Assembly (NCBI GenBank): GCA_034521515.1
Contig: JAXHMH010000002.1
Span: 24,379-88,378 of the forward strand
DNA from: Candidatus Saccharimonadota bacterium
Lineage (GTDB): Bacteria > Patescibacteriota > Saccharimonadia > Saccharimonadales > JAXHMH01
Direction: 5' to 3'
Length of the DNA stretch: 64,000 nucleotides
Shown one piece after another: positions 3,110 to 63,873 of this stretch. Numbering within the stretch: the first letter of the stretch is position 1; each line of letters begins with the position of its first letter. The notes beneath the pieces were generated by a model, which saw only the letters and a program-made list of their open reading frames with translations, did no database searches and had not been told where the DNA came from. Position numbers and translations under genes: made by a program.

Positions 3110-3158
3110 TGCTTTACAGTTTAGCAGAACATACTGTCCCGATGCTATAATTTCATGC

Positions 3159-3356
3159 ATGAACGATGACAAGACCAAACAAGTTATTGAACACCTCGAC
3201 GATAAATTCGCCTCAATGCTCGATACTATTGACACCAGGATAGAAATAAAAGTAAGACAAATCGTACAAGAAGAGCTAACTGAGCTAAATGAAACTATTA
3301 AAGCTACTTATATTGAGATACTAGCTCCGCTAGGAAGCAGGTGGTGCGATGAGTAA
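3159..3356 (+). CDS. small hypothetical coiled-coil protein (65 aa)
   Basis: MNDDKTKQVIEHLDDKFASMLDTIDTRIEIKVRQIVQEELTELNETIK...; fills the pyrH-xth gap, 8-nt overlap with xth start. No homology recognised. Confidence 0.3.
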   Translation: MNDDKTKQVIEHLDDKFASMLDTIDTRIEIKVRQIVQEELTELNETIKATYIEILAPLGSRWCDE

Positions 3357-4210: not shown

Positions 4211-4477
4211 TCATTCTAAGCCAATGCCGTAATCACAGGCAACTGTTTCGGCGTTTACACCGTTAGTAACTTTATTAAAACCTTTGGCGTTAAGTAGCTG
4301 CTTTGCTACTTCTGAGCGATCACCAGTCCGGCAATACACCACGATATCAGTATCCTTATCAAGTGTCATAAGTTCTGCCGCGTTATCAAGCTCTAGCAGG
4401 GGTATATTAAACGCGCCAGTCGAGTGGCGCGTTTGGTATTCTTCTGGTTCACGCACATCAATTATCATCTTACTCAT
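4211..4477 (-). CDS. single-domain rhodanese-like sulfurtransferase
   Basis: IIDVREPEEYQTRHSTGAFNIP...VVYCRTGDRS active-site loop; 88 aa. Confidence 0.85.
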   Translation of the reverse strand: MSKMIIDVREPEEYQTRHSTGAFNIPLLELDNAAELMTLDKDTDIVVYCRTGDRSEVAKQLLNAKGFNKVTNGVNAETVACDYGIGLE

Positions 4478-4544
4478 GCATATAGTATAGAACGCCGCAG
4501 TATTCTGTGCTACGATGCGTAAGCCGTAAATTTACAATTAAAAA

Positions 4545-4642
4545 ATATCAAGAGAGTGGCAAGGGATCTGACCCGTTGACCCACCAGCAACCTAGCTTTT
4601 TGCAGCCAAGGTGCTACGTTCAGCCCTTTTCGGGGAAGATAT
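4545..4642 (+). promoter_or_regulatory. SAM-I (S-box) riboswitch aptamer upstream of metK
   Basis: ATATCAAGAGAGTGGCAAGGGATCTGACCCGTTGACCCACCAGCAACC...AAGGTGCTAC...GAAGATAT matches the S-box core (AUCAAGAG, AGGGA, GACCCG, AGCAACC, AAGGUGCUA) with P1 ATATC/GATAT; sits 60 nt before metK ATG. Confidence 0.85.
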
Positions 4643-4702
4643 CAGCACAACACGATGCTCCTTTATCGACCCGAATCAGGACAGATTAAAAGGAGTTTTT
4701 TC

Positions 4703-13831: not shown

Positions 13832-13852
13832 AGAGTTTTTTAAGCGAAAAAT

Positions 13853-13878
13853 AAACGCGCCACTCGAGTGGCGCGTTT
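13853..13878. terminator. 26-bp palindrome family member (bidirectional terminator-like hairpin)
   Basis: aaacgcgccactcgagtggcgcgttt 22 nt after sortase stop; A-run/T-run arms. Confidence 0.5.
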
Positions 13879-14018
13879 ATTCCCCCTGCATCAAAAACAC
13901 AATAAAATACGTTCTTAACAATAGGAACATGCCAAGGTCAGACCTTGGCACAAAAAAAGATACAAGCTGTATCCTCGCTGCACAAGGAACGTCCTTGTAC
14001 AGTTTGTGGCACTAATTT

Positions 14019-14119: not shown

Positions 14120-15979
14120 CTAGCGTACCGGCCAGACGTAGTTGTTGAAGGTCTTGCCACGGGAGTTGGTGAGGCCGGCGCCCAGGTCTACGTGCCAGGC
14201 GTCAGACGTATTAGGAGCGTAGGTAGAAGACGACCAATACCAGGTGGGCACCAGACCAGAAAACGGATGGCCGACTGGGAGAGCTGGAGTAGAATGTTGG
14301 TGGCTCATAAGGCTGCGAAACTCACGGCGGCTTGGCAACCGCCAATCCCCAGCCACAGAGCCATCGGTAAGACTACAGCTTGCACTAGCTAGACCATTAG
14401 CGTCACTCAGGGCTTGTGTCCAGGTGCGTGTACCAAAACAGTTGGCGTCTTTGAGCCATATGAGCCCTGTCAGGTTGTCTGTCACTGTGCCATCACTGTT
14501 GTCAGTGAAGCGTGGGTCTGGCCATGCAAGACCCATCTGGTACTCACCATCTTGGCCAGTGCCAGCACAGGAGATGACGGTGCCACCTGCATCGTAGCAG
14601 GTATCTTGGCCGGTGGCAGCAGGTTGCGCTGGCCAGTCAGGTTCTACATCTGCAGCCGTTCCGGTTAAGTACCCCCACTCGCTACTGCATAACCCCCAGT
14701 AGGTCTGTCCGTCTAGGACATCACTTGGCTGAGCACAGTTGGTATCATCTACTGCTGGCATGACTCCCATGATGTCATTGAGGCTATACATGGTGGTGGT
14801 ACTTGGACCAGAAGTTGGACCAACAAAGCCGGTTTGGGTTAGTGCGGAGGTGCCGGTTGTAAGTCGGTTATAAATTTGGGTGAGGCTGGGCTTCTGTGAG
14901 GTAGGGCTATTTGGGCCGCTGGGTGGGGTGAGTTGAGCGTGGGCTACGCCACTGCGTGGCAGAAAACTCCCGAGCCGGGTCAGAAGTGAACGGTACCAAG
15001 TGGTAGAGCTAGCAAAGGCAGCATCTTCTAGGGTTGCTCCGCCATGACTGTTATCCATAGCAATATGGTCTGTGGGCGGATTGTGTGGCGCGAAAGCGAT
15101 ACTGGAGGTGCCACCGCGGACGGGCCAGACAGAGTGGTTGTTGGTCTTGCCGTAGTTTTCGGTGGTGCCATTATTATAGTACACAAACCAGGCACGAGAC
15201 GCATTCGGTACGTAGGTAGAAGACGACCAATAGTAGTAGTTTGTTACTACACCCGAAAACGGGTGGCCTGAGGGTATACGTGGTGCCGATGTTACACCTA
15301 AGTCTAGGAGTGATTCCAATTCATAAATGTTAGGCAACCGCCAATCCCCAGCCACAGAGCCATCCGTAAGACCACAACTTGCACTCGCGAGACCGTTAGC
15401 ATCACTCAGGGCTTGTTCCCAGGTGCGGGTACCAAAACAGTTAGCGTTCTTAAGCCATATCAGGCCAGTCAGGTTATCCGTCACGGTACCGTCAGCGTTA
15501 TCGGTAAAGCGTGGGCTGGCGGTTTCGCCCATTTGGTATTCCCCGTCTTGACCAGTGCCAGCACAGGATATAACACTACCAGCAGCGTCATAGCAGGTGT
15601 TTTGACCAGTAGCTGCGAGTCGAGCTGGCGAATTAAAGCTTGGGCCGAACCCACTGCCCGCGCACAAGCTCCAGTAGGTCGTACCGGGTATAACCTGGCT
15701 TGGCTCAGCACAATCCACGTCTGCTTCCGGCAACAGGCCGAACAGTTCATCCAGGCTGCACATTGGGGTGGTGTCGCCTGGGCCGGTGGTTGGTTCGGTG
15801 AAGGTTGCGACCATAGTACCGGCGGCTCCGGTTTCTAGGCGGTTGCATAGGTCATCTAGGGTGTAGCTTTGGCTGGATGGGTCGGTTGGTGGGGCTGGTG
15901 GGTTTAGGCTAGCAAACACGGCACCGCCGATACCAAGCAGTAGTACGGCAATCAGGATAGGGACTACCCGCTCGCCCAT
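14120..15979 (-). CDS. membrane-anchored surface protein with two tandem DUF1566 (Lcl C-terminal/C-type-lectin-like) domains
   Basis: N-terminal TM; twice repeated TGQ.TCYDA.G..ISCAGTGQDGEYQMG...RFTDN.DGTVTDNLTGLIWLK.ANCFGTRTW.QALSDANGLASASC.LTDGSVAGDWRLP...WSSSTY.PN...AW; visibly GC-richer than neighbours (not computed). Confidence 0.8.
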   Translation of the reverse strand: MGERVVPILIAVLLLGIGGAVFASLNPPAPPTDPSSQSYTLDDLCNRLETGAAGTMVATFTEPTTGPGDTTPMCSLDELFGLLPEADVDCAEPSQVIPGTTYWSLCAGSGFGPSFNSPARLAATGQNTCYDAAGSVISCAGTGQDGEYQMGETASPRFTDNADGTVTDNLTGLIWLKNANCFGTRTWEQALSDANGLASASCGLTDGSVAGDWRLPNIYELESLLDLGVTSAPRIPSGHPFSGVVTNYYYWSSSTYVPNASRAWFVYYNNGTTENYGKTNNHSVWPVRGGTSSIAFAPHNPPTDHIAMDNSHGGATLEDAAFASSTTWYRSLLTRLGSFLPRSGVAHAQLTPPSGPNSPTSQKPSLTQIYNRLTTGTSALTQTGFVGPTSGPSTTTMYSLNDIMGVMPAVDDTNCAQPSDVLDGQTYWGLCSSEWGYLTGTAADVEPDWPAQPAATGQDTCYDAGGTVISCAGTGQDGEYQMGLAWPDPRFTDNSDGTVTDNLTGLIWLKDANCFGTRTWTQALSDANGLASASCSLTDGSVAGDWRLPSRREFRSLMSHQHSTPALPVGHPFSGLVPTWYWSSSTYAPNTSDAWHVDLGAGLTNSRGKTFNNYVWPVR

Positions 15980-16097: not shown

Positions 16098-16245
16098 AGG
16101 GAAGGGCTAGGGTACAGGGTATAGGGTATAGGGTGTAGGGTGGAGACAGGGTTAAGGGTGAAGGGTTTAGGGTGGAGAGATTAGGATGAAATGTTCTGGG
16201 GTTTAGGGTTTAGGGTTGTGTGGGGGTATGGGGGCTAGGGGTTAG
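16098..16245. repeat. G-strand heptamer array (GGGTNNA)n with about 17 G-tracts, includes (TTTAGGG)2-3
   Basis: gggaagggctagggtacagggtatagggtatagggtgtagggtgg...gggttaagggtgaagggtttagggtgg...ggggtttagggtttagggttg...ggggtatgggggctaggggttag, about 120 nt upstream of the DUF1566 start codon. Confidence 0.9.
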
Positions 16246-27091: not shown

Positions 27092-27502
27092 ATGCAGCAA
27101 GATACAACACCAACGCCTCAGCCACAAACCGGCAAATCAGTTCTTTGTATTGAGGATGAACATTTTATTGGCGAGCTATACACTCGTGCTCTTACACGCG
27201 CCGGCTATGAAATTAACGTGGTTATTGACGGAGTTGAAGGATTAAAAGAAGCCCAGACAAACAAATACGACATCATATTGCTCGATATGATGGTGCCGAA
27301 TTTGACCGGTTTTGAAATTTTGAAACGACTGCGCGATCCATCAATAACCCCTAAGTTGGATGGCAAAATTATCATCACCACCAACCTGGAGCAGGGTGAT
27401 GAAGCCAAAGCCGAGATAGAAAATCAAGCTGACGGTTACGTCGTTAAAGCTGAAATAACCCCAAAACAGCTCGTTAAGTTCCTCGACCAACTCGACACCT
27501 AA
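27092..27502 (+). CDS. single-domain response regulator (receiver only)
   Basis: VLCIEDEHF...DIILLDMMVPNLTGFE...IIITTN...VVKAE; 136 aa, no output domain. Confidence 0.9.
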   Translation: MQQDTTPTPQPQTGKSVLCIEDEHFIGELYTRALTRAGYEINVVIDGVEGLKEAQTNKYDIILLDMMVPNLTGFEILKRLRDPSITPKLDGKIIITTNLEQGDEAKAEIENQADGYVVKAEITPKQLVKFLDQLDT

Positions 27503-27545
27503 GCTCTTACTCTTAGAGTAAGTAACCTGATCACTTTTTGCATAA

Positions 27546-28082
27546 AAGCCAGCACTCCATCCTCCCCACTTTTGGCAGCAAAAGTAGGCAAAACTGCTGG
27601 GCTGCGTTTTTGCCTTGATGTATCTGTTGATACAAAACAGGCTCGCTGGTTCGTCTCTTTTTGCGGCGCAGCAGGCTTTGCCTGGTGGCAGGCAAAAAGG
27701 GAATGCTGTCGGAACTCCCCCTCACCATCTCTTTCGAGAGTGGTGAGGGGTCAGACAGCTCTCGCGCCCAAGGGCGCCTCTTTTACACAACATCTAGTCA
27801 GGACTTTGCAGAGCCAGACCCCGGAATGGCTTCGCCATTCCGGTTAATTATGTGTTCTTTAAAAAGAACACAACTAATGAGGGTCACATCTGAAAAACAG
27901 AAGCGAAGGAGTGCTGGTTGGACGAGTCAAGCCGGTAGTCAAGCTCCGCCAAAGTAACTAGAAAAACTGGCGGAGCCGCTTGTCGTTCTGCCGGCGCGGC
28001 CAACCAGTGCTGCTTCGTACTCTTGTTTTTTCAGTCGTGACGAGCTTTTTGGTTACTTTTTAGCGGACAAAAAGTAACAGGG
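27546..28082 (+). ncRNA. hairpin-dense repeat element, copy A (candidate large structured RNA; family unidentified)
   Basis: Paralog of 42629-43158; at least 8 hairpins plus an 18-bp long-range helix; compensatory differences between copies; G-U pairs valid only on + strand. As a repeat this is certain; as an RNA gene it is inference. Confidence 0.55.
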
Positions 28083-28127
28083 TATTTGATTCTTCCGGCC
28101 TTCGCAGTAGTAATGCTAATTCCCAGT

Positions 28128-28152
28128 ATTTCCAAGACCTGGTCTTGGAAAT
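28128..28152. repeat. 25-nt perfect palindrome atttccaagacc-t-ggtcttggaaat
   Basis: 12-bp arms; the same element (central base complemented) recurs at 31027-31050. Confidence 0.9.
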
Positions 28153-28246
28153 AGCTAGAATATTGTATAACTATCTTGTTGTTCGCTATGGCGGAGTAGG
28201 TTTGGAAAAGAAGGTTAACAGAAGCTTTCGTTTGTGGTGTTTTACT

Positions 28247-28272
28247 AAACGCGCCAGTCGTCTGGCGCGTTT
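28247..28272. terminator. 26-bp palindrome family member
   Basis: aaacgcgccagtcgtctggcgcgttt, 14 nt downstream of the minus-strand small gene 28286..28456. Confidence 0.5.
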
Positions 28273-28285
28273 ATTTTACAGGCTA

Positions 28286-28456
28286 TTAACGCTGCGTTGT
28301 TAGGTGATAGCCAAAACAAACAGGGCATTTGTAAACGCGGGTAGGCTTTTTAAGTTCTCGGGTAGGGTTGATCCGTTTTAGCGCGGCCTGAGCATCAGCG
28401 TCGCTACCAAACCTCCGCTTGCGCTTACACGCCACCTTTTCATTAATACTCGCCAT
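28286..28456 (-). CDS. small zinc-ribbon-like protein (56 aa; below ORF-track cutoff)
   Basis: Own translation: MASINEKVACKRKRRFGSDADAQAALKRINPTRELKKPTRVYKCPVCFGYHLTTQR; C..C/CPVC pairs. Confidence 0.45.
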   Translation of the reverse strand: MASINEKVACKRKRRFGSDADAQAALKRINPTRELKKPTRVYKCPVCFGYHLTTQR

Positions 28457-30572: not shown

Positions 30573-31001
30573 ATGAAGATACACATGGTAACCGTTGGCA
30601 AGCCAAAACTCGCCTATGCAGCATCTGGTTGGGATGAGTATTTAGGCCGTCTACAGCACTATCACCAAGTGCGCGTCACGCACCTCGCCGATAAGAATAA
30701 TAATGCGGATAGCTTGCTGGCCGCAGCCGGCAACGCGTACAAAATTGCGCTCGTCATTGACGGCAAACAATTTACCAGCAAGGAGCTGGCGGAATTTCTA
30801 GACAAACGCGCGCTGAATGGCAGGGAAGTCTGCCTACTCATCGGCGGACCGGACGGCCTGCAACCAGAGGTAATCGATGCCGCAGATTTCCAAATGGGTC
30901 TATCCCGCATGACATTCCCGCATGACCTGGCAATGGTCATCCTCCTGGAAGCCCTCTACCGCGCAAGCACCGTCAGCGCCGGCCAGCCTTATCATAAATA
31001 A
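30573..31001 (+). CDS. rlmH: 23S rRNA (pseudouridine1915-N3)-methyltransferase (SPOUT)
   Basis: MKIHMVTVGKPKLAYAASGWDEYLGRL...LLIGGPDGL...LSRMTFPHDLAMVILLEALYRASTVSAGQPYHK. Confidence 0.9.
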   Translation: MKIHMVTVGKPKLAYAASGWDEYLGRLQHYHQVRVTHLADKNNNADSLLAAAGNAYKIALVIDGKQFTSKELAEFLDKRALNGREVCLLIGGPDGLQPEVIDAADFQMGLSRMTFPHDLAMVILLEALYRASTVSAGQPYHK

Positions 31002-32054: not shown

Positions 32055-32242
32055 ACTTATTCCTTTACTATTACATTATAAATGCAACTCCATATTAGTT
32101 CCGTAAGCAGGCGATTGCAACCCGCTCATGGTTGGCGTACTCGGTACTTCAGAAATTGCAGAAATTGCGCAGTGAATATAGACTCTGTGGCTTGCAGGGT
32201 TTGCACGTTTTTTGCAAGGTCTAACCTTGCAAACCTGGCATC

Positions 32243-32327
32243 CCCGCATGATCTAGCGATGGTCATACTACTAGAGGCCATCTACCGCGGCAGCACTATA
32301 TCTGCTGGTCAGCCGTATCATAAATAG
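32243..32327 (+). pseudogene. detached second copy of the rlmH 3' end (last 28 codons plus stop)
   Basis: Encodes PHDLAMVILLEAIYRGSTISAGQPYHK* versus PHDLAMVILLEALYRASTVSAGQPYHK* at 30918-31001. By my codon comparison there are 12 synonymous and 3 replacement codon differences. No upstream rlmH body. Confidence 0.8.
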
Positions 32328-36519: not shown

Positions 36520-37179
36520 GTGAGGATAAATAAATATATTGCTAGTGCTACTGGTATGAGCCGCCGCGCAGCCGACAGAAAAGTTGCAGAAAGGCGGGTG
36601 ATGGTAAACGGTGCACCGCCATCGTCAGGCTACAGCGTGCAAAAAGATGATACCGTAACCCTAGACGGCAAAATTATATCGCCTGGCTCAACCACTACTA
36701 TAATCATGCTCAACAAACCGGTCGGTTATGTCTGCTCACGGGACGGGCAGGGCAACAAAACTATCTACCAACTGCTGCCAGAATCGCTCCACCACCTAAA
36801 GCCTGTTGGCAGGCTAGACAAACACTCATCCGGGCTGCTGCTTATGACCGACGACGGGCAGCTAGCTTACAAGTTAACCCATCCCAAATTCCAAAAGCTG
36901 AAAAAGTATAAAATTGCGCTTAATAAAGATTTAACAGAGAAAGATTTTGATAAAATCACCAAACAGGGCGTCATGTTAGACGATGGTCTTAGTAAATTTG
37001 CTCTTGACCCAATCAATAATCAGAACAAAGAGTGGAAAGTAGAGATGCGCGAAGGTCGCAACCGGCAGATCCGTCGCACATTCGAATCCTTGGGTTATAA
37101 CGTCGTCAAACTCCACCGCACCCATTTTGGCGAATACACACTTGGATCTCTGCAAAGCGGAAAAATACAAACTCTCTAG
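36520..37179 (+). CDS. rRNA pseudouridine synthase (RsuA/RluB family, S4 domain + catalytic domain)
   Basis: (V)RINKYIASATGMSRRAADRKV...VMVNG (S4); catalytic GRLDKHSSGLLLMTDDG; REGRNRQIRR. GTG 36520 preferred over track start 36505. Confidence 0.85.
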   Translation: MRINKYIASATGMSRRAADRKVAERRVMVNGAPPSSGYSVQKDDTVTLDGKIISPGSTTTIIMLNKPVGYVCSRDGQGNKTIYQLLPESLHHLKPVGRLDKHSSGLLLMTDDGQLAYKLTHPKFQKLKKYKIALNKDLTEKDFDKITKQGVMLDDGLSKFALDPINNQNKEWKVEMREGRNRQIRRTFESLGYNVVKLHRTHFGEYTLGSLQSGKIQTL

Positions 37180-37200
37180 CAACAAAACTTAACTTAAATC

Positions 37201-37803
37201 CTAAGTCTTGGCTTCATTGAGTAGTGACATGCCAACGTATACACCTAGCGCAAAGGAAGCCGCTCTGTCTGGCTCCTCCAACAAGGGTCGCGAGAGAGCC
37301 TCCGCAAACAATTCACCCATAATATCGGGTAGTTGGTCGCTCCACATAAATGGGGATTCACCAGATACTATATATGATTTTAAGGAATCAAAATTCGATG
37401 GTCGAGCGTGAAAAATTTCAGTTATAGTATCTTTGTCAAGTTTTTGGTCAGCACCTGGAGAGTGGGTGCTTGAAGAGGCCGCCATAGAATAAAACCACAA
37501 AAAGCCGAGCCTTTCGCAGAACATGCCATTAATTGTGTCCTGTGGATCTGCTGGAGTATCGTGCTTATAAACCCTGGCACCAGCCCTGGACTTATTGTCG
37601 TATACCAATAGAGCCTTCTTCAAGAACGAGTAAAGATCATCCTCAGATACATCTTTCATTTCTTCATCAATTAGTTCGATGAATTTAACAGGATAATCCA
37701 GGGCGAATTCGGTCTGTACGGCCATAGCTTGTCTGATTTCCTCGGTCGAAGCTCGACCTTCTACGTTACCGGGAAATAAATTGCCACCTTCTGGGTTTGT
37801 CAT
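37201..37803 (-). CDS. hypothetical protein
   Basis: 200-aa ORF, no motif recognised. Confidence 0.55.
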   Translation of the reverse strand: MTNPEGGNLFPGNVEGRASTEEIRQAMAVQTEFALDYPVKFIELIDEEMKDVSEDDLYSFLKKALLVYDNKSRAGARVYKHDTPADPQDTINGMFCERLGFLWFYSMAASSSTHSPGADQKLDKDTITEIFHARPSNFDSLKSYIVSGESPFMWSDQLPDIMGELFAEALSRPLLEEPDRAASFALGVYVGMSLLNEAKT

Positions 37804-37867
37804 GACAATATTTTACCATCATTTATATCAGTTTACAATAATCGCTACCTCTGTTATACTGTTGTAA

Positions 37868-39424
37868 ATGAGTAGTAAAAAATTACCGATTGTGGCAATT
37901 GTTGGCCGTGCGAACGTTGGCAAGTCCAGCTTATTTAACGCTATACTTTCGCGCCGTGAAGCAATCGTAGCAAGAGAAGCCGGAACAACCCGCGACGCTG
38001 TTTGGGCAAAAGCCACTGTATTGGGCCAAGCGAAGTCTTCGGCGCATTTGGATGGAGCGCACGGAAGCGACGAGCAGCGGACTGAGCCGTATAAATCATA
38101 CGGTGAGGGAGCAGTGGAGCCGGTGACACAGCGATCCGCCAAAAAGGGTGGTGGAGTTTCTGGCTCCGCCAGAAAGCAGACCACCCTGGTGCGCCAAGAC
38201 TTCTGGTTAGCCGATACTGCTGGGATTAAAGACCCCGAGGATGACTTTGAGTTCACTATCCAAGAACAAATAACTCAAGCCGCCGAGAGTGCCGATGTTA
38301 TCTGGGTTGTCGTAGAAGCGGATGTGGCAATAAACGAAGAAGATCGTAGAGTCGCCAAGATGGCGCTTAAGTCAAAAAAGCCGGTCTTTTTGGTTGTAAA
38401 TAAAATAGACAAAGCCAAAAAGGCCAGTTCCAAAGATTATCAGCGTCTGGGCATAAAGCAGATTTTTCTTACTAGCACCACGCAAAACAGAGGTATTGGA
38501 GACCTTCTTGATGAGCTTATCCAAGAGATCCCAAACATATCTCTGCCCGAGCCAGACGAACGACTCCGGATTGCATTGTTGGGCCGACCAAACGTTGGTA
38601 AATCACGACTGTTTAACACACTGGCTAAGAAACAGCAGGCAATCGTAGCCGATAGAGCCGGTACAACCCGCGACATTAACCGCGCTATCGTGCGTTATCA
38701 GGGCAAAGAGATTGAACTTATGGACACTGCCGGCATACGACGTAACGGCAAGATAGAGAAGGGCATCGAACGCTTTAGCGTAATCCGATCTTTAAGCGCC
38801 ATAGAACAAGCCGACATCTGCTTGTTGCTGCTTGATGCAAACGAACTACACGTTACGCTTGACCAGAAAATAGCTGGCATGGTTAAGGAATCCGGGAAAG
38901 GCCTGATACTAGTCGTTAGTAAATGGGACAGCCTTGATAAAGACGCCTATACTCGCGACAGTGTGGCACCACGTATTGTTCACGATTTTGACTTTACGCC
39001 TTGGGCACCATTAGTTTTCACTAGCGCCGTAACTGGTCAAAATGTCACCAAATTGTTCGATATGGCTCTACATATCGAAAAACAACGCCAGATTATTATC
39101 AAGACAACCGAACTAAACCGCTGGCTCGGTGATATCACCAACAGCCACCCTCCGGCTGGCCTAAAGAACCGGCAACCTAAACTTAATTACATCGTCCAAG
39201 AAGCCGATAACCCGACCAATTTTAAGGTGTTTGGGGCGCACACAAAGTTCCTGCACTGGAGCTATAAGCGATTTATGGATAAAAGTTTGCGCGAAAAGTA
39301 TGGCTTTGAAGGTACGCCGGTGAAATTTTGGTTTTTTGAAAAACACGAAACTCACAAACACGGTGCAAGCCCCACAAAAGAGCGCAACAAAGAAAACCGC
39401 CGCCGCGAACGCAAGAACAGCTAG
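37868..39424 (+). CDS. der: ribosome-associated GTPase Der/EngA carrying a ~57-aa insertion in GTPase domain 1 and a basic tail
   Basis: G1 GRANVGKSSLFN, G2 TTRD, G3 DTAG; second domain GRPNVGKSRLFN...DTAGIRR...SKWD; KH-like C-terminus; tail KERNKENRRRERKNS. Confidence 0.9.
   Translation: MSSKKLPIVAIVGRANVGKSSLFNAILSRREAIVAREAGTTRDAVWAKATVLGQAKSSAHLDGAHGSDEQRTEPYKSYGEGAVEPVTQRSAKKGGGVSGSARKQTTLVRQDFWLADTAGIKDPEDDFEFTIQEQITQAAESADVIWVVVEADVAINEEDRRVAKMALKSKKPVFLVVNKIDKAKKASSKDYQRLGIKQIFLTSTTQNRGIGDLLDELIQEIPNISLPEPDERLRIALLGRPNVGKSRLFNTLAKKQQAIVADRAGTTRDINRAIVRYQGKEIELMDTAGIRRNGKIEKGIERFSVIRSLSAIEQADICLLLLDANELHVTLDQKIAGMVKESGKGLILVVSKWDSLDKDAYTRDSVAPRIVHDFDFTPWAPLVFTSAVTGQNVTKLFDMALHIEKQRQIIIKTTELNRWLGDITNSHPPAGLKNRQPKLNYIVQEADNPTNFKVFGAHTKFLHWSYKRFMDKSLREKYGFEGTPVKFWFFEKHETHKHGASPTKERNKENRRRERKNS
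38032..38203. mobile_element. in-frame palindromic insertion with terminal inverted repeats inside der (MITE/RPE-like)
   Basis: TIRs gaagtcttcggcgc (38032-45) and gcgccaagacttc (38191-203) are 13/14 complementary. Internal hairpins ccgtat/atacgg 38087-103 and agggtggt/accaccct 38145-87. Falls between the G2 and G3 motifs, where Der proteins I recall have only about 20 aa. Confidence 0.5.
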
Positions 39425-39530
39425 TGTTTGATATTTGAAGTTATCATCAGATTCTGCGGGACAAGTAGGCTATTTAAGTTCGCTTTGGATGCTACGCGGG
39501 CAGAATAGCGCCGCGCGAACCAAGCTATAC

Positions 39531-39559
39531 TTGATACTTTCTACTTTCTACTTGATACT
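39531..39559 (+). promoter_or_regulatory. promoter candidate TTGATA-17-GATACT placing the TSS at or near the pth ATG (possible leaderless mRNA)
   Basis: ttgata 39531-36, 17-nt spacer, gatact 39554-59, ATG at 39566; the motif tacttgatact occurs twice here and once at 32855. Confidence 0.3.
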
Positions 39560-39565
39560 TACCTT

Positions 39566-40207
39566 ATGGCATTATTCCAAAAGAACCCATTCAGCACAGA
39601 CAGCACCAAACCCCTCTACACCCTAAGCAACAACAAAACCATCTTAATTGTCGGGCTTGGCAATATGGGCACCAGATACCATAAGACTCGTCATAACCTT
39701 GGTTTCACCTGTGTTGATGCCTTCGCAAAGCAACACGAATTTCCGGATTGGGCAGAAAAAGGCGATCTAAAAGCTTATGTTACAGCTAAAACGCTCGGTG
39801 ATACTAAAGTGCTATTGGCTAAGCCAACAACTATGATGAACCTCAGCGGCGAAGCGGTGCAGGCAATTGCTCATTTTTATAAAGTTGAACCTAGCTCAAT
39901 CGTGGTCGTGCACGATGAAGCAGCAATTCCGTTTGGGCAGATACGTACACGTATGGGCGGTAGCAGCGCTGGCCATAATGGAATAAAGTCAATTACCAAA
40001 CACATTGGAGAAGATTTTGGCCGCGTGCGCATAGGCGTCGAACCTGCCGAACCAACCAGGCTGGACATGTCAGACTATGTGCTGGCTCGTATGTCTGAAG
40101 ATGAAGAATCACAACTGCCGGCACTACTACGCGAGACAAGTACCTTGTTGACGGAATACGTTTTTGCCGGCGAACTAGGCCACGAAACCCGCAGTTTCTT
40201 GGTTTAA
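39566..40207 (+). CDS. pth: peptidyl-tRNA hydrolase
   Basis: ILIVGLGNMGTRYHKTRHNLGF...MNLSGEAV...VVHDE...GGSSAGHNGIKS. Confidence 0.9.
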   Translation: MALFQKNPFSTDSTKPLYTLSNNKTILIVGLGNMGTRYHKTRHNLGFTCVDAFAKQHEFPDWAEKGDLKAYVTAKTLGDTKVLLAKPTTMMNLSGEAVQAIAHFYKVEPSSIVVVHDEAAIPFGQIRTRMGGSSAGHNGIKSITKHIGEDFGRVRIGVEPAEPTRLDMSDYVLARMSEDEESQLPALLRETSTLLTEYVFAGELGHETRSFLV

Positions 40208-40249
40208 CTTATAACCGCTTTACTCACAATCAGATCGTTTTATTCATTC

Positions 40250-40525
40250 CTACGCATCCAGCTCATCCTCCACGCCCAGCTGCCTTAACATACTGCGAGC
40301 GGCCGTAATAATCTCTTCGCTGTCTTCCTTAAAGCTTTTGCCGTAATCATCGCTCGAGAATTGCCGGGATTCAAGCTCCTTTTTGGCCTCTCTGATCTTA
40401 GAGATCAGTCCTTCAACATCATCAATCGGCCAATCTTTTCGGCCACTCATAACATCCGTTTCGCGTTCGGTGTCGCCGTAATAGTACTTATCCCCGCACT
40501 CTTCCAGAATTAAGTTATACCACAC
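40250..40525 (-). CDS. small acidic hypothetical protein
   Basis: 91 aa, helical, D/E-rich. Confidence 0.5.
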   Translation of the reverse strand: MWYNLILEECGDKYYYGDTERETDVMSGRKDWPIDDVEGLISKIREAKKELESRQFSSDDYGKSFKEDSEEIITAARSMLRQLGVEDELDA

Positions 40526-40884: not shown

Positions 40885-40919
40885 ATATAAACCTATAAAT
40901 TATTATACTGTTATCTAAA

Positions 40920-40963
40920 AGAGCCTCAAGAGGGTGAAGATTGCCAGTGGCAATCTGCAAGGC
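40920..40963. repeat. 44-bp perfect direct repeat, copy 1
   Basis: gagcctcaagagggtgaagattgccagtggcaatctgcaaggcc; contains hairpin gattgcc-agt-ggcaatc. Confidence 0.95.
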
Positions 40964-41024
40964 CCATCCTTCCAGCGGAAAGACAGGTGGGGTCGCCAGA
41001 GGTGGTTGGGCACCCTAACTGAAA

Positions 41025-41068
41025 TGAGCCTCAAGAGGGTGAAGATTGCCAGTGGCAATCTGCAAGGC
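41025..41068. repeat. 44-bp perfect direct repeat, copy 2 (105-bp period)
   Basis: Identical to 40920-40963. Confidence 0.95.
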
Positions 41069-41258
41069 CGGAAGCCCGGATGGCATATGCCACCGAGCTG
41101 AGGTGGGGCCGACCGCATTTTCAAAGAAAATGACGGGTGGGGCTGGGCGCCTCAAATAAAAACAGGCTTCCAGAGGGGGTGGGCACCACTGGAAGCCTGA
41201 TTCCACCCTTCAAGCCCACCAGCGAAGCATCTAGCAACAACGTAAGACGTGCCGTGCC

Positions 41259-42628: not shown

Positions 42629-43158
42629 AAGCCAGTACACCATCCTCCCCACTTTTGTCATCAAAAGTGGGCAAAACTGCTGGGCTGCGTTTTTGCCTTG
42701 ATGTATCTGTTGATACAGAACAGGCTCGCTGGTTTGTCTCTTTTGCGGCGCAGCAGGCTTTGCCTGGTGACAGGCAAAAAGGGAATGCTGTCGGAACTCC
42801 CCCTCACCATCTCTTTCGAGAGTGGTGAGGGGTCAAACAGTCCTCGCACCCGAGGGCGCCTCATTCTCACAACATCGCTTCAGGGTAAGCCGGAGCCAGA
42901 CCCCGGAATGGCCCGGGCCATTCCGGATAGATACGTGTTCTTTTAAAACACAGGTAACTAGGGTCACATCTGAAAAACAGAAGCGAAGCAGCGCTGGTTG
43001 GACGAGTCAAGCCAGCAGTCAGTCCCGAACAAACAAATAAAGAATGGTGAGGGACCGCTTGTCGTTCTGCTGGCGCGGCCAACCAGTGCTGCTTCGTGCT
43101 CTTGTTCTTTCAGCCGTGACGAGGTTTTGTACTACTTTTGGCAGGCAAAAGTAGTAGG
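42629..43158 (+). ncRNA. hairpin-dense repeat element, copy B (candidate large structured RNA; family unidentified)
   Basis: Paralog of 27546-28082 in the same orientation, between dprA and topA. Confidence 0.55.
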
Positions 43159-62838: not shown

Positions 62839-62943
62839 AGGGCTCCCCTTTGCTCATTTTATTACTATTTATTTACCACGTTGCTGGGTTTCAAGGCAAC
62901 ACTATTTATTAACCACTTTTTAATAACAACCTGTCCTTATTAT

Positions 62944-62969
62944 TAAACGCGCCACTCGACTGGCGCGTT
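62944..62969. terminator. 26-bp palindrome family member
   Basis: aaacgcgccactcgactggcgcgttt in the divergent gap 62839-63129. Confidence 0.4.
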
Positions 62970-63129
62970 TAGCGTTTGTGCTGCACAGACTCCAAATAGC
63001 ATGTGTTTTTGTTTTAGATTTATACTGAATACGCAAGCCGGCTTTCGTATTCAAGAACTCAGCGTCGCCTTATACAGTAAAAAGCTTCTGCTTTGTGAAT
63101 ACTTATTTGAGAGATACAATACTCGCATT

Positions 63130-63771: not shown

Positions 63772-63820
63772 AAACTCATGTCAGCCTATGACTTGAAATA
63801 TATAACTCTGTGTTACCACT

Positions 63821-63846
63821 AAACACGCCAGTCGACTGGCGCATTT
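63821..63846. terminator. 26-bp palindrome family member (degenerate)
   Basis: aaacacgccagtcgactggcgcattt between convergent genes. Confidence 0.45.
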
Positions 63847-63873
63847 CAGTTTTATGCCTAACGTAAACTCGAT

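Follow-up and report, generated by a model that had tools for sequence, protein, structure and literature searches.

Within a 64,000-nt stretch of Candidatus Saccharimonadota contig JAXHMH010000002.1 (hereafter the window, meaning the whole stretch analyzed), the essential GTPase gene der contains an in-frame insert, 38027-38194, which is a copy of a dispersed element that is non-autonomous and about 125-170 nt long. Judged from comparative sequence data, this element appears to represent an undescribed family that spans phyla of the Candidate Phyla Radiation (CPR) and beyond, has the hallmarks of a functional structured RNA, and is apparently under nucleotide-level selection inside der. We consider it rather probable that the element is a translated, mobile structured repeat with a selected RNA fold. 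The original prediction, drawn from the window alone, had proposed an in-frame, hairpin-forming element of the type known as Rickettsia palindromic elements (RPE), and this proposal is essentially right: the copies are dispersed, enter unrelated open reading frames (ORFs) in one frame, and share a conserved hairpin fold.

The insert in der

The der product is 100% identical to a protein named ribosome biogenesis GTPase Der by NCBI in a Candidatus Saccharibacteria metagenome-assembled genome (MAG), matches solved Der/EngA structures at E 4e-82, and has the two tandem GTPase domains with G motifs and the C-terminal KH-like domain of Der/EngA. The Pfam domains recorded for it (P0001) are the GTPase and KH families, with none for the insert. 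The 120 best relatives were aligned, and the spacing between the TTRD and DTAG motifs was compared in 121 proteins; 114 of the 121 have a spacing of 16 residues and no insert of any kind at this site, against 72 residues in the window Der, and therefore 56 codons (168 nt) are extra, close to the ~57 residues first estimated. The features of the gene and of the element within it are as follows.

37868-39424, + strand: der (engA) ORF, the host gene; 518 aa, two GTPase domains and a KH-like domain
37985-37996, + strand: TTRD, the G2/switch I motif of GTPase domain 1
38027-38194, + strand: in-frame insert QAKSSAHLDG...TTLVR, 56 codons/168 nt, defined by the Der alignment
38032-38047, + strand: closing helix P1, 5' arm GAAGTCTT-c-GGCGCAT, which covaries with the 3' arm among five der copies
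38048-38142, + strand: conserved core TTGGATGGAGCGCACGG ... GATCCGCCAA, 95 nt (covariance model R1, 90.9 bits, E 4e-19)
38087-38103, + strand: apical hairpin P3, CCGTAT-AAATC-ATACGG (alignment columns 42-62)
38145-38187, + strand: extra 3' hairpin P4 of the long form typical of Saccharibacteria; 20-nt arms, 80% complementary
38189-38203, + strand: P1, 3' arm GTGCGCC-AAGACTTC, of which 38195-38203 are the native der codons Q-D-F
38213-38224, + strand: DTAG, the G3/switch II motif of GTPase domain 1

The borders of the insert are ambiguous inside a 6-nt direct repeat, GCCAAG (38025-30 and 38193-98), and deletion of 38027-38194 gives back ...VLG/QDFWLADTAG, that is, the normal Der spacing. Its GC content (0.57-0.61, vs 0.48 for the whole gene) agrees with the enrichment that had been noticed by eye, and the tryptic peptide SSAHLDGAHGSDEQR would be an example of a product that derives from it. 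The insert is not an assembly artefact, because L116, which was assembled independently from the same run, agrees with the window at 99.97% identity across 36868-40424.

In an AlphaFold model based on an alignment of 89 sequences, residues 55-106 have a predicted local distance difference test (pLDDT) score below 50 and lie between strands 45-54 and 106-116; the insert is thereby predicted to be a floppy, low-confidence loop that extends the beta2-beta3 hairpin of GTPase domain 1 at its tip, with borders consistent with solved Der structures. The Der relative P0108, which is also long, has an unrelated insert of ~30 aa at precisely this site of the beta2-beta3 hairpin, and the Der of P0022 (L003) contains, besides its copy of the element, ~52 aa inserted downstream of GTPase domain 2 (the SKWD...KDAYTRD stretch). 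By these sequences, Der of this clade appears to accept insertions repeatedly.

Folded as RNA, the insert region (38020-38215) reaches -87.9 kcal/mol vs -66 +/- 4.2 for shuffled sequence (z = -5.17), and none of 200 shuffles was as stable. The closing helix P1 accounts for what had been described as near-perfect terminal inverted repeats: GAAGTCTT (38032-39) pairs with AAGACTTC (38196-203) at 8 of 8 positions and GGCGCA pairs with TGCGCC, with C38040 bulged. The pairing arms are thus real, but they are not conserved transposon ends, as the sequence of P1 differs in nearly every copy of the element and its 3' arm consists partly (der) or wholly (xth, below) of native host codons. Both of the internal hairpins that had been proposed, 38087-103 and 38145-87, are present as P3 and P4, the arms of the latter being 38145-64 and 38168-87, with changes that are compensated in other der copies.

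Spread and fold of the element

A word-indexed protein search with a peptide profile of the der inserts gave 12 candidates and 2 matches, which were the first copies outside der: two stand-alone 58-60-aa "proteins" (P0121 and P0122), both of which are intergenic copies of the element. The search missed known Der copies, making it unusable for counting. Between genes, the copy in L005 (4003-4175) has a tRNA gene ~180 nt away and an ABC transporter directly downstream, and that in L006 (115-287) fills the space from a stop codon to the next start codon. The two most conserved blocks were combined into a search pattern (TTGGATGRAGYRCAMGG N{58,86} RATYCGCCAA), which identified 38 loci in bacteria represented by one genome per species, mostly Saccharibacteria; other positive groups were Wolfebacteria, Magasanikiibacteriota, Nomurabacteria and Kaiserbacteria, together with MAGs of two Gallionella (between fliP and fliQ), Gammaproteobacteria, and Clostridia / Ca. 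Limadaptatus. The same scan of metagenomes gave 70 loci. Covariance model R1, built from 43 cores, recovered all pattern loci as well as more divergent neighbors (49 + 87 matches, about 120 distinct copies), and several loci have 2-3 copies inside 8-14 kb. In a Wolfebacteria locus (L027, 2452-2548, - strand), an antisense copy lies between two tRNA genes (2148-2220 and 2744-2814). No match to the element was found in viral contigs by the pattern scan or in plasmid and phage collections, and the literature, including a query with conserved 15-mers, yielded no description of it.

With its filters off, the covariance model finds only the der copy in the window (next match 13 bits), and neither the model nor blastn detects another copy there. 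The words that the insert had been said to share with a pair of "530-nt elements" in the window are real 9-11-mers at chance level (blastn E 2-36; covariance model 9.4 bits). At least two further copies exist in the same genome, at 3158-3252 and 3477-3570 of L115, which does not overlap the window, so that the genome holds a repeat family of at least three copies (der and two on L115). The L115 locus is that of P0149, a 453-aa methyltransferase-like protein recorded on the same 706,252-bp contig and from the same run; P0149 contains a diverged copy in frame, and a canonical copy follows 26 nt downstream of its stop codon, directly before rpmA.

The element occurs in a short form of about 125 nt, in which P1 closes the 95-nt core, and in a long form of about 170 nt, to which the window copy belongs, in which P4 separates the core from the 3' arm of P1. 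The core forms an irregular rod. It begins with UUGG paired with CCAA, a bulged A and a U.G wobble, continues with three covarying pairs either side of a G/A mismatch and an internal loop of AAGG opposite AACGCA, and ends on the apical side with P2, a further interrupted helix and the hairpin P3, where a T-A to C-G swap (columns 48/56) is found in about half of the copies.

Compensatory changes are seen at 17 of the 27 predicted pairs of the consensus fold. On a MAFFT alignment, pairing is kept in 92.8% of cells, vs 74.5% with partners shuffled and 28-43% with the partners slid, and none of 500 shuffles attained the covariation score of 0.523 (vs 0.186). Where the search pattern is degenerate, covariation is nearly perfect (43/43, 42/43 and 40/43 cores), and 19 copies outside the pattern keep the helix with new pairs, such as GCAG opposite ATGC. 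Among 114 unique copies, G.U pairs outnumber A.C pairs (238 vs 72, or 126 vs 72 without the conserved wobble), and therefore the der-sense strand is the folding strand. The unpaired nucleotides of the core and the U.G wobble are conserved across phyla. In these respects the element behaves like a conserved structured RNA and not like a simple palindrome. On the element, none of the 4227 Rfam models reached its gathering score or matched at permissive thresholds, and the group I and group II intron models gave no match at E up to 10 (window region) or E up to 1 (seven loci). A hammerhead-like CUGAUGA, present in some copies, is not conserved in the alignment.

Copies within and between genes, and other features of the window

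Homologous copies are carried by five der genes: that of the window, those of the long Der relatives P0003, P0007 and P0022, with a similar peptide at the same site, and a fifth in L023. Identity among these five genes was distributed as follows.

Insert: amino-acid identity 0.63; third-codon-position identity 0.65 (0.79 in the core, at identical residues)
Rest of der: amino-acid identity 0.74; third-codon-position identity 0.42
14-16 codons flanking the insert on each side: third-codon-position identity 0.41-0.54

What is conserved among the der copies is thus nucleotides and base pairs, not the peptide. Recent gene conversion as the cause is ruled out, because the codons that flank the insert are at background third-position identity. 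All helices of the predicted fold are kept in the der copies via changes on both strands; the P1 pair that includes the wobble base of an Arg codon is G-C, C-G, G.U or A-U across the five genes, and in the outer part of P1 nucleotides of the insert pair with the native Q/H-D-F codons and change in step with their wobble bases (GAAGTCTT/AAGACTTC; GAAATCCT/AGGATTTC; GAAGTCAT/ATGACTTT). The insert in xth separates two blocks that adjoin each other in the solved structure 5cfe; here P1 has a 3' arm of 13 nt (CCGTGATCTACTG, encoding P-V-I-Y-C) that is native sequence throughout, judged by the solved ExoA structure, and the complementary arm is inside the insert. The xth of L039 also has a second, different insertion of ~50 aa (AVSQQGSLSRQDVAVATSRSEKSRLAAALESQPESLDSVNL...) upstream of the element, at protein residues ~75-125.

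The der copies descend from one insertion, because all share the inner P1 sequence GGCGCAT, which is absent from other copies. Carriers and non-carriers alternate among Der relatives, and in a neighbor-joining tree the window protein is not sister to the other carriers, with insert-free proteins interleaved; this distribution reflects either precise loss of the insert on several occasions or its lateral spread from one der allele to another. Ribosomal bypass from one matched codon to the other (CAA...CAA in the window copy) was also considered and rejected, as the other der copies do not have the repeat.

Between 22 (strict criteria, long ORFs) and 34 (loose criteria) copies lie inside genes, and all of them are in sense orientation, stop-free and read in one frame, LDG(V/A)QG.DEQRTE.Y..YGEGA...TQ.SAK. 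Their hosts include der, truB, tsaB, uvrA, ligA, an NYN-domain gene, a Mur ligase gene, uvrD/pcrA, dnaG, tatD and ileS, as well as tsaD (two genomes, same site), xth (three genomes, same site) and a dus gene with two in-frame copies (L082, 1405-1499 and 1729-1824). An exhaustive profile search of 1.84 billion representative proteins gave 170 clusters at E up to 0.001; among the 150 clusters listed, most are 50-70-aa ORFans, and 34 longer matched proteins examined by Pfam scan include FolD, PrmC, Ogt, MsrA, DHFR, DinB, NrdR, PilM and malic enzyme, bringing the total to more than 25 host families. The other 50-70-aa matches (most of P0124-P0271) are probably for the most part also just the element, and hence a recurrent annotation artefact. 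A fold-compatible insertion site was found for der, the only host assessed in this way, in the form of the low-pLDDT hairpin-tip loop. Two apparent antisense copies inside genes proved spurious (a DEAD-box helicase gene's 5' leader in one case, a junk ORF in the second), and two "frame 1" cases fall in the leader region of pilin-like genes. At L031 (6064-6162 and 6912-7006) and L075 (1650-1744), the element adjoins the 5' side of a type IV pilin-like leader (...GGFTIVEL) or overlaps it, and the open frame continues from the element into the pilin.

The intergenic copies (n=32) usually contain stop codons. The frame used inside genes is open in 9 of them and the three antisense frames in 24, 26 and 17, and therefore the restriction to sense orientation and a single frame is not due to the availability of open frames. 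Five sense copies lie between co-directional genes, and in none of the five cases does the element separate two halves of one gene. Because the intragenic copies are in frame and stop-free and none of these five sense copies splits a gene, we conclude that the intragenic copies have been filtered for translatability, and this is the main argument against removal of the element at the RNA level.

Between co-directional genes, orientation is the opposite of that inside genes, with 16 antisense vs 5 sense copies, and these opposite biases contradict a single replication-strand orientation rule. A simple scan did not call P4 and the TTTTT that follows it on the antisense strand as an intrinsic terminator, and such a terminator as the reason for the lack of antisense copies inside genes is speculation. 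Read by eye, several sense copies just upstream of genes have a Shine-Dalgarno sequence in the 3' arm of P1, which ends at the start codon, for example before rpmA (L115, 3477-3570), the ABC transporter gene (L005), the gene in L006 and Gallionella fliQ (L035 and L037); an automated count of Shine-Dalgarno sequences in P1 was too noisy, and the pattern rests on reading the sequences.

Evidence for movement comes from recent paralogues. The copies of L011 and L032, which come from one genome, have 100% identity over 165 nt and flanks that are unrelated, and those of L012 and L019, in unrelated places of one genome, are 96% identical over 125 nt. No consistent target duplication was found among the copies: a 6-nt flanking repeat occurs in the window copy and L006 only, and duplications are absent in both of these paralogue pairs and in short-form copies. 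Neither a conserved flanking motif nor a conserved tetranucleotide was found around the copies, and no gene recurs within 3 kb of them (43 loci), with no transposase, reverse transcriptase, TnpA or TnpB among the neighbors.

Apart from der, the window holds several other features. The "530-nt elements" of the original prediction correspond to a repeat pair of ~515 nt (27546-28060 and 42629-43139), whose copies lie 15.08 kb apart with 89-94% identity; no convincing long ORF and no Rfam match were found in the copy examined (27300-28300), and the pair is unrelated to the der insert. A near-perfect palindrome of ~26 nt, AAACGCGCCA(S)TCGA(S)TGGCGCGTTT, is present in five copies (4401-4445, 13845-13889, 28239-28283, 62937-62981 and 63813-63857) and has the look of either a terminator or a repeat family similar to REP. 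At 4542-4645 (+ strand), a SAM riboswitch (S box) scores 51.5 bits, above the Rfam gathering score, and 16100-16220 is occupied by a degenerate, G-rich tandem repeat, GGGTnTAGGGT..., in which about five units of 32 nt overlap. Direct repeats are found at 14195-14633 and 15188-15629 (76-85% identical, about 1 kb, probably reflecting tandem paralogous genes), at 30910-31000 and 32236-32326 (a 91-nt pair, 77% identical), and at 40917-40964 and 41022-41069 (a 48-nt pair, 98% identical, 105 nt apart).

Explanations, related systems and significance

The translated, mobile structured repeat that we favor would spread by a mechanism acting in trans, and its intragenic copies would persist only if their translation yields a harmless hydrophilic loop on the protein surface, such that Der still works. 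Its fold would be kept by RNA-level purifying selection, as a cis-acting mRNA module recognized by a conserved factor, and the element would then be neither junk nor a protein domain. Several observations weigh against this account. We infer mobility from distribution only, because no mobilizing enzyme, conserved terminus or target duplication was found; the antisense excess between co-directional genes fits a simple mRNA function poorly; and copy number is apparently low, with a single copy in the 64-kb window and 2-4 on each complete CPR contig seen. As the outer blocks were fixed by the search pattern, their apparent invariance is in part built in. Moreover, a vertically inherited selfish element should decay, and its conservation in der therefore implies either a host benefit or repeated precise re-insertion.

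A host benefit is central to the first of the alternatives, a cis-regulatory RNA module (a site for a protein, an RNase or a small ligand) that co-regulates many housekeeping genes and has been recruited into untranslated and coding regions, with mobility as the mere means of arrival. The cross-phylum conservation of unpaired nucleotides and of the U.G wobble, the limitation of conservation in der to the insert, the upstream sense copies with the Shine-Dalgarno sequence in P1 (rpmA, ABC transporter, L006 and fliQ), and the fact that intragenic copies match the model as well as intergenic ones all agree with such a module. However, the neighboring genes have no common function and none is recurrent, antisense copies prevail over sense copies by 16 to 5 between co-directional genes, 114 of 121 Der relatives do without the element, and no Rfam family matches it. 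We regard this alternative as possible, with the odds clearly against it. Similarly, we would give a minor chance to the element being a new class of structured RNA (a factor-binding site, or a small catalytic or ligand-sensing fold) that is both mobile and functionally maintained, and to such a class extending over coding regions of essential genes, 5' leaders with a ribosome-binding site hidden in P1, and several phyla. If true, the expression of many housekeeping genes of Saccharibacteria would be tied to one RNA module that ribosomes read through.

It is quite improbable that the element is an intervening sequence removed from the RNA, by self-splicing or by host enzymes, to give a mature Der without the insert. 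Under this explanation, the pairing of the 5' arm of P1 with the downstream exon would hold the junctions in the manner of P10 of group I introns, and the covariation of this arm with native downstream codons in der (9 nt) and xth (13 nt) is what such a role predicts; every intragenic copy being sense and the fold being conserved in place in der also agree with it, and CPR genomes are intron-rich (PMC13011429). The 22-34 intragenic copies are nevertheless all stop-free in the frame of the host, a frame that is open in 9 of 32 intergenic copies, and a split gene is seen at none of the five sense copies that lie between co-directional genes. In der and xth the junctions are placed differently with respect to P1, models of group I and group II introns give no match even at E up to 10, and, to our knowledge, all known self-splicing introns are larger than the 125-170 nt of the element.

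A transposon derivative, either a classical MITE (a miniature transposable element with inverted repeats) dependent on a DDE transposase or a hairpin-ended relative of IS200/IS605 moved as single-stranded DNA, is no more credible. The element is small, non-coding, palindromic and multi-copy, and the window copy is flanked by a 6-nt direct repeat; its strand-specific fold and lack of inverted-repeat ends and duplications would suit IS200/IS605 elements, which have neither inverted-repeat ends nor target duplications. A classical MITE it is not, because its ends are unconserved, no target duplication is consistent and no gene recurs beside it: copies show neither conserved terminal inverted repeats nor a fixed-length target-site duplication, and no parent insertion sequence was found. 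Terminal sequences vary between copies, the other copies and the recent paralogues have no target duplication, the 43 loci have no recurring transposase, TnpA or TnpB and no conserved flanking tetranucleotide, and one replication-strand rule is insufficient to explain copies that are sense inside genes and mostly antisense between them.

A lineage-specific functional peptide or domain of Der, with incidental nucleotide features, would explain why five der genes have a recognizably similar peptide at one site, which the different insert of P0108 shows to tolerate insertions, but it is largely refuted and very improbable, given that the same sequence occurs between genes with stop codons and in more than 25 unrelated proteins, that the peptide is less conserved than the rest of Der and the third positions more so, and that the insert is predicted to be disordered and has no recorded Pfam domain. 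An intein is rejected, the insert having 56 aa vs at least about 130 aa for a Hint domain, a predicted disordered state and no Pfam domain.

The translated, mobile structured repeat has its closest counterpart in the RPE, described by Ogata et al. (2000, 2002) and summarized in PMC10969869. In the outline given by that summary, RPE are hairpin-forming repeats of roughly 100-170 bp that occur between genes and in frame in many unrelated housekeeping genes, always encode the same conserved peptide, enter fold-compatible sites and have no known transposase. The present element is likewise a repeat family with a 100-170-nt hairpin, inserted in frame with one peptide and, in der, at a fold-compatible site. 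It is likened to RPE by description, with no known sequence relationship, and unlike them it resides in Saccharibacteria and other CPR bacteria, not in Alphaproteobacteria, at an apparently low copy number per genome. Further differences are a core that is conserved across several phyla, including unpaired nucleotides and a U.G wobble, and a closing helix that recruits host codons and covaries with them; we know of no report of this for RPE.

Other small, non-autonomous, structured repeats, co-transcribed and found in either orientation between genes, include Correia/NEMIS, ERIC, BOX, RUP and REP/BIME. Such intergenic hairpin families have conserved termini, and Correia elements in addition have a TA duplication and conserved inverted repeats, whereas in the present element the ends are free in sequence and the interior alone is conserved. 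ERIC and BOX are occasionally intragenic (PMC10969869). Like group I introns (P1/P10), which are frequent in CPR genomes, the element has a 5' segment that pairs and covaries with the adjacent exon sequence; unlike them, it matches no intron model, is much smaller, is always in frame and stop-free within genes, has a variable junction geometry, and has many intergenic copies in either orientation. The conserved core and the ribosome-binding site in the 3' arm of P1 of upstream sense copies resemble riboswitch leaders that sequester the Shine-Dalgarno sequence, but the adjoining genes have no common function, copies also lie in coding regions and antisense, and no ligand is known.

In-frame "protein-coding palindromes" have so far been treated as a peculiarity of Rickettsia. 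The element described here indicates that the same phenomenon appears independently in a second group of reduced-genome, host-dependent bacteria, where it affects essential genes such as der, uvrA, ligA, dnaG, ileS and tsaD, among others. Unlike in Rickettsia, there is direct comparative evidence for selection on the fold within a coding region, with host codons that covary with the insert. The family provides a concrete new RNA family for databases and a caution for annotation, as many of the clusters that match its peptide are "hypothetical proteins" of 50-70 aa, and the two that were checked (P0121 and P0122) are simply the element. Some Saccharibacteria can now be cultivated and genetically manipulated (PMC10633639), and thus offer a tractable system for how such elements move and why they are kept in essential genes.

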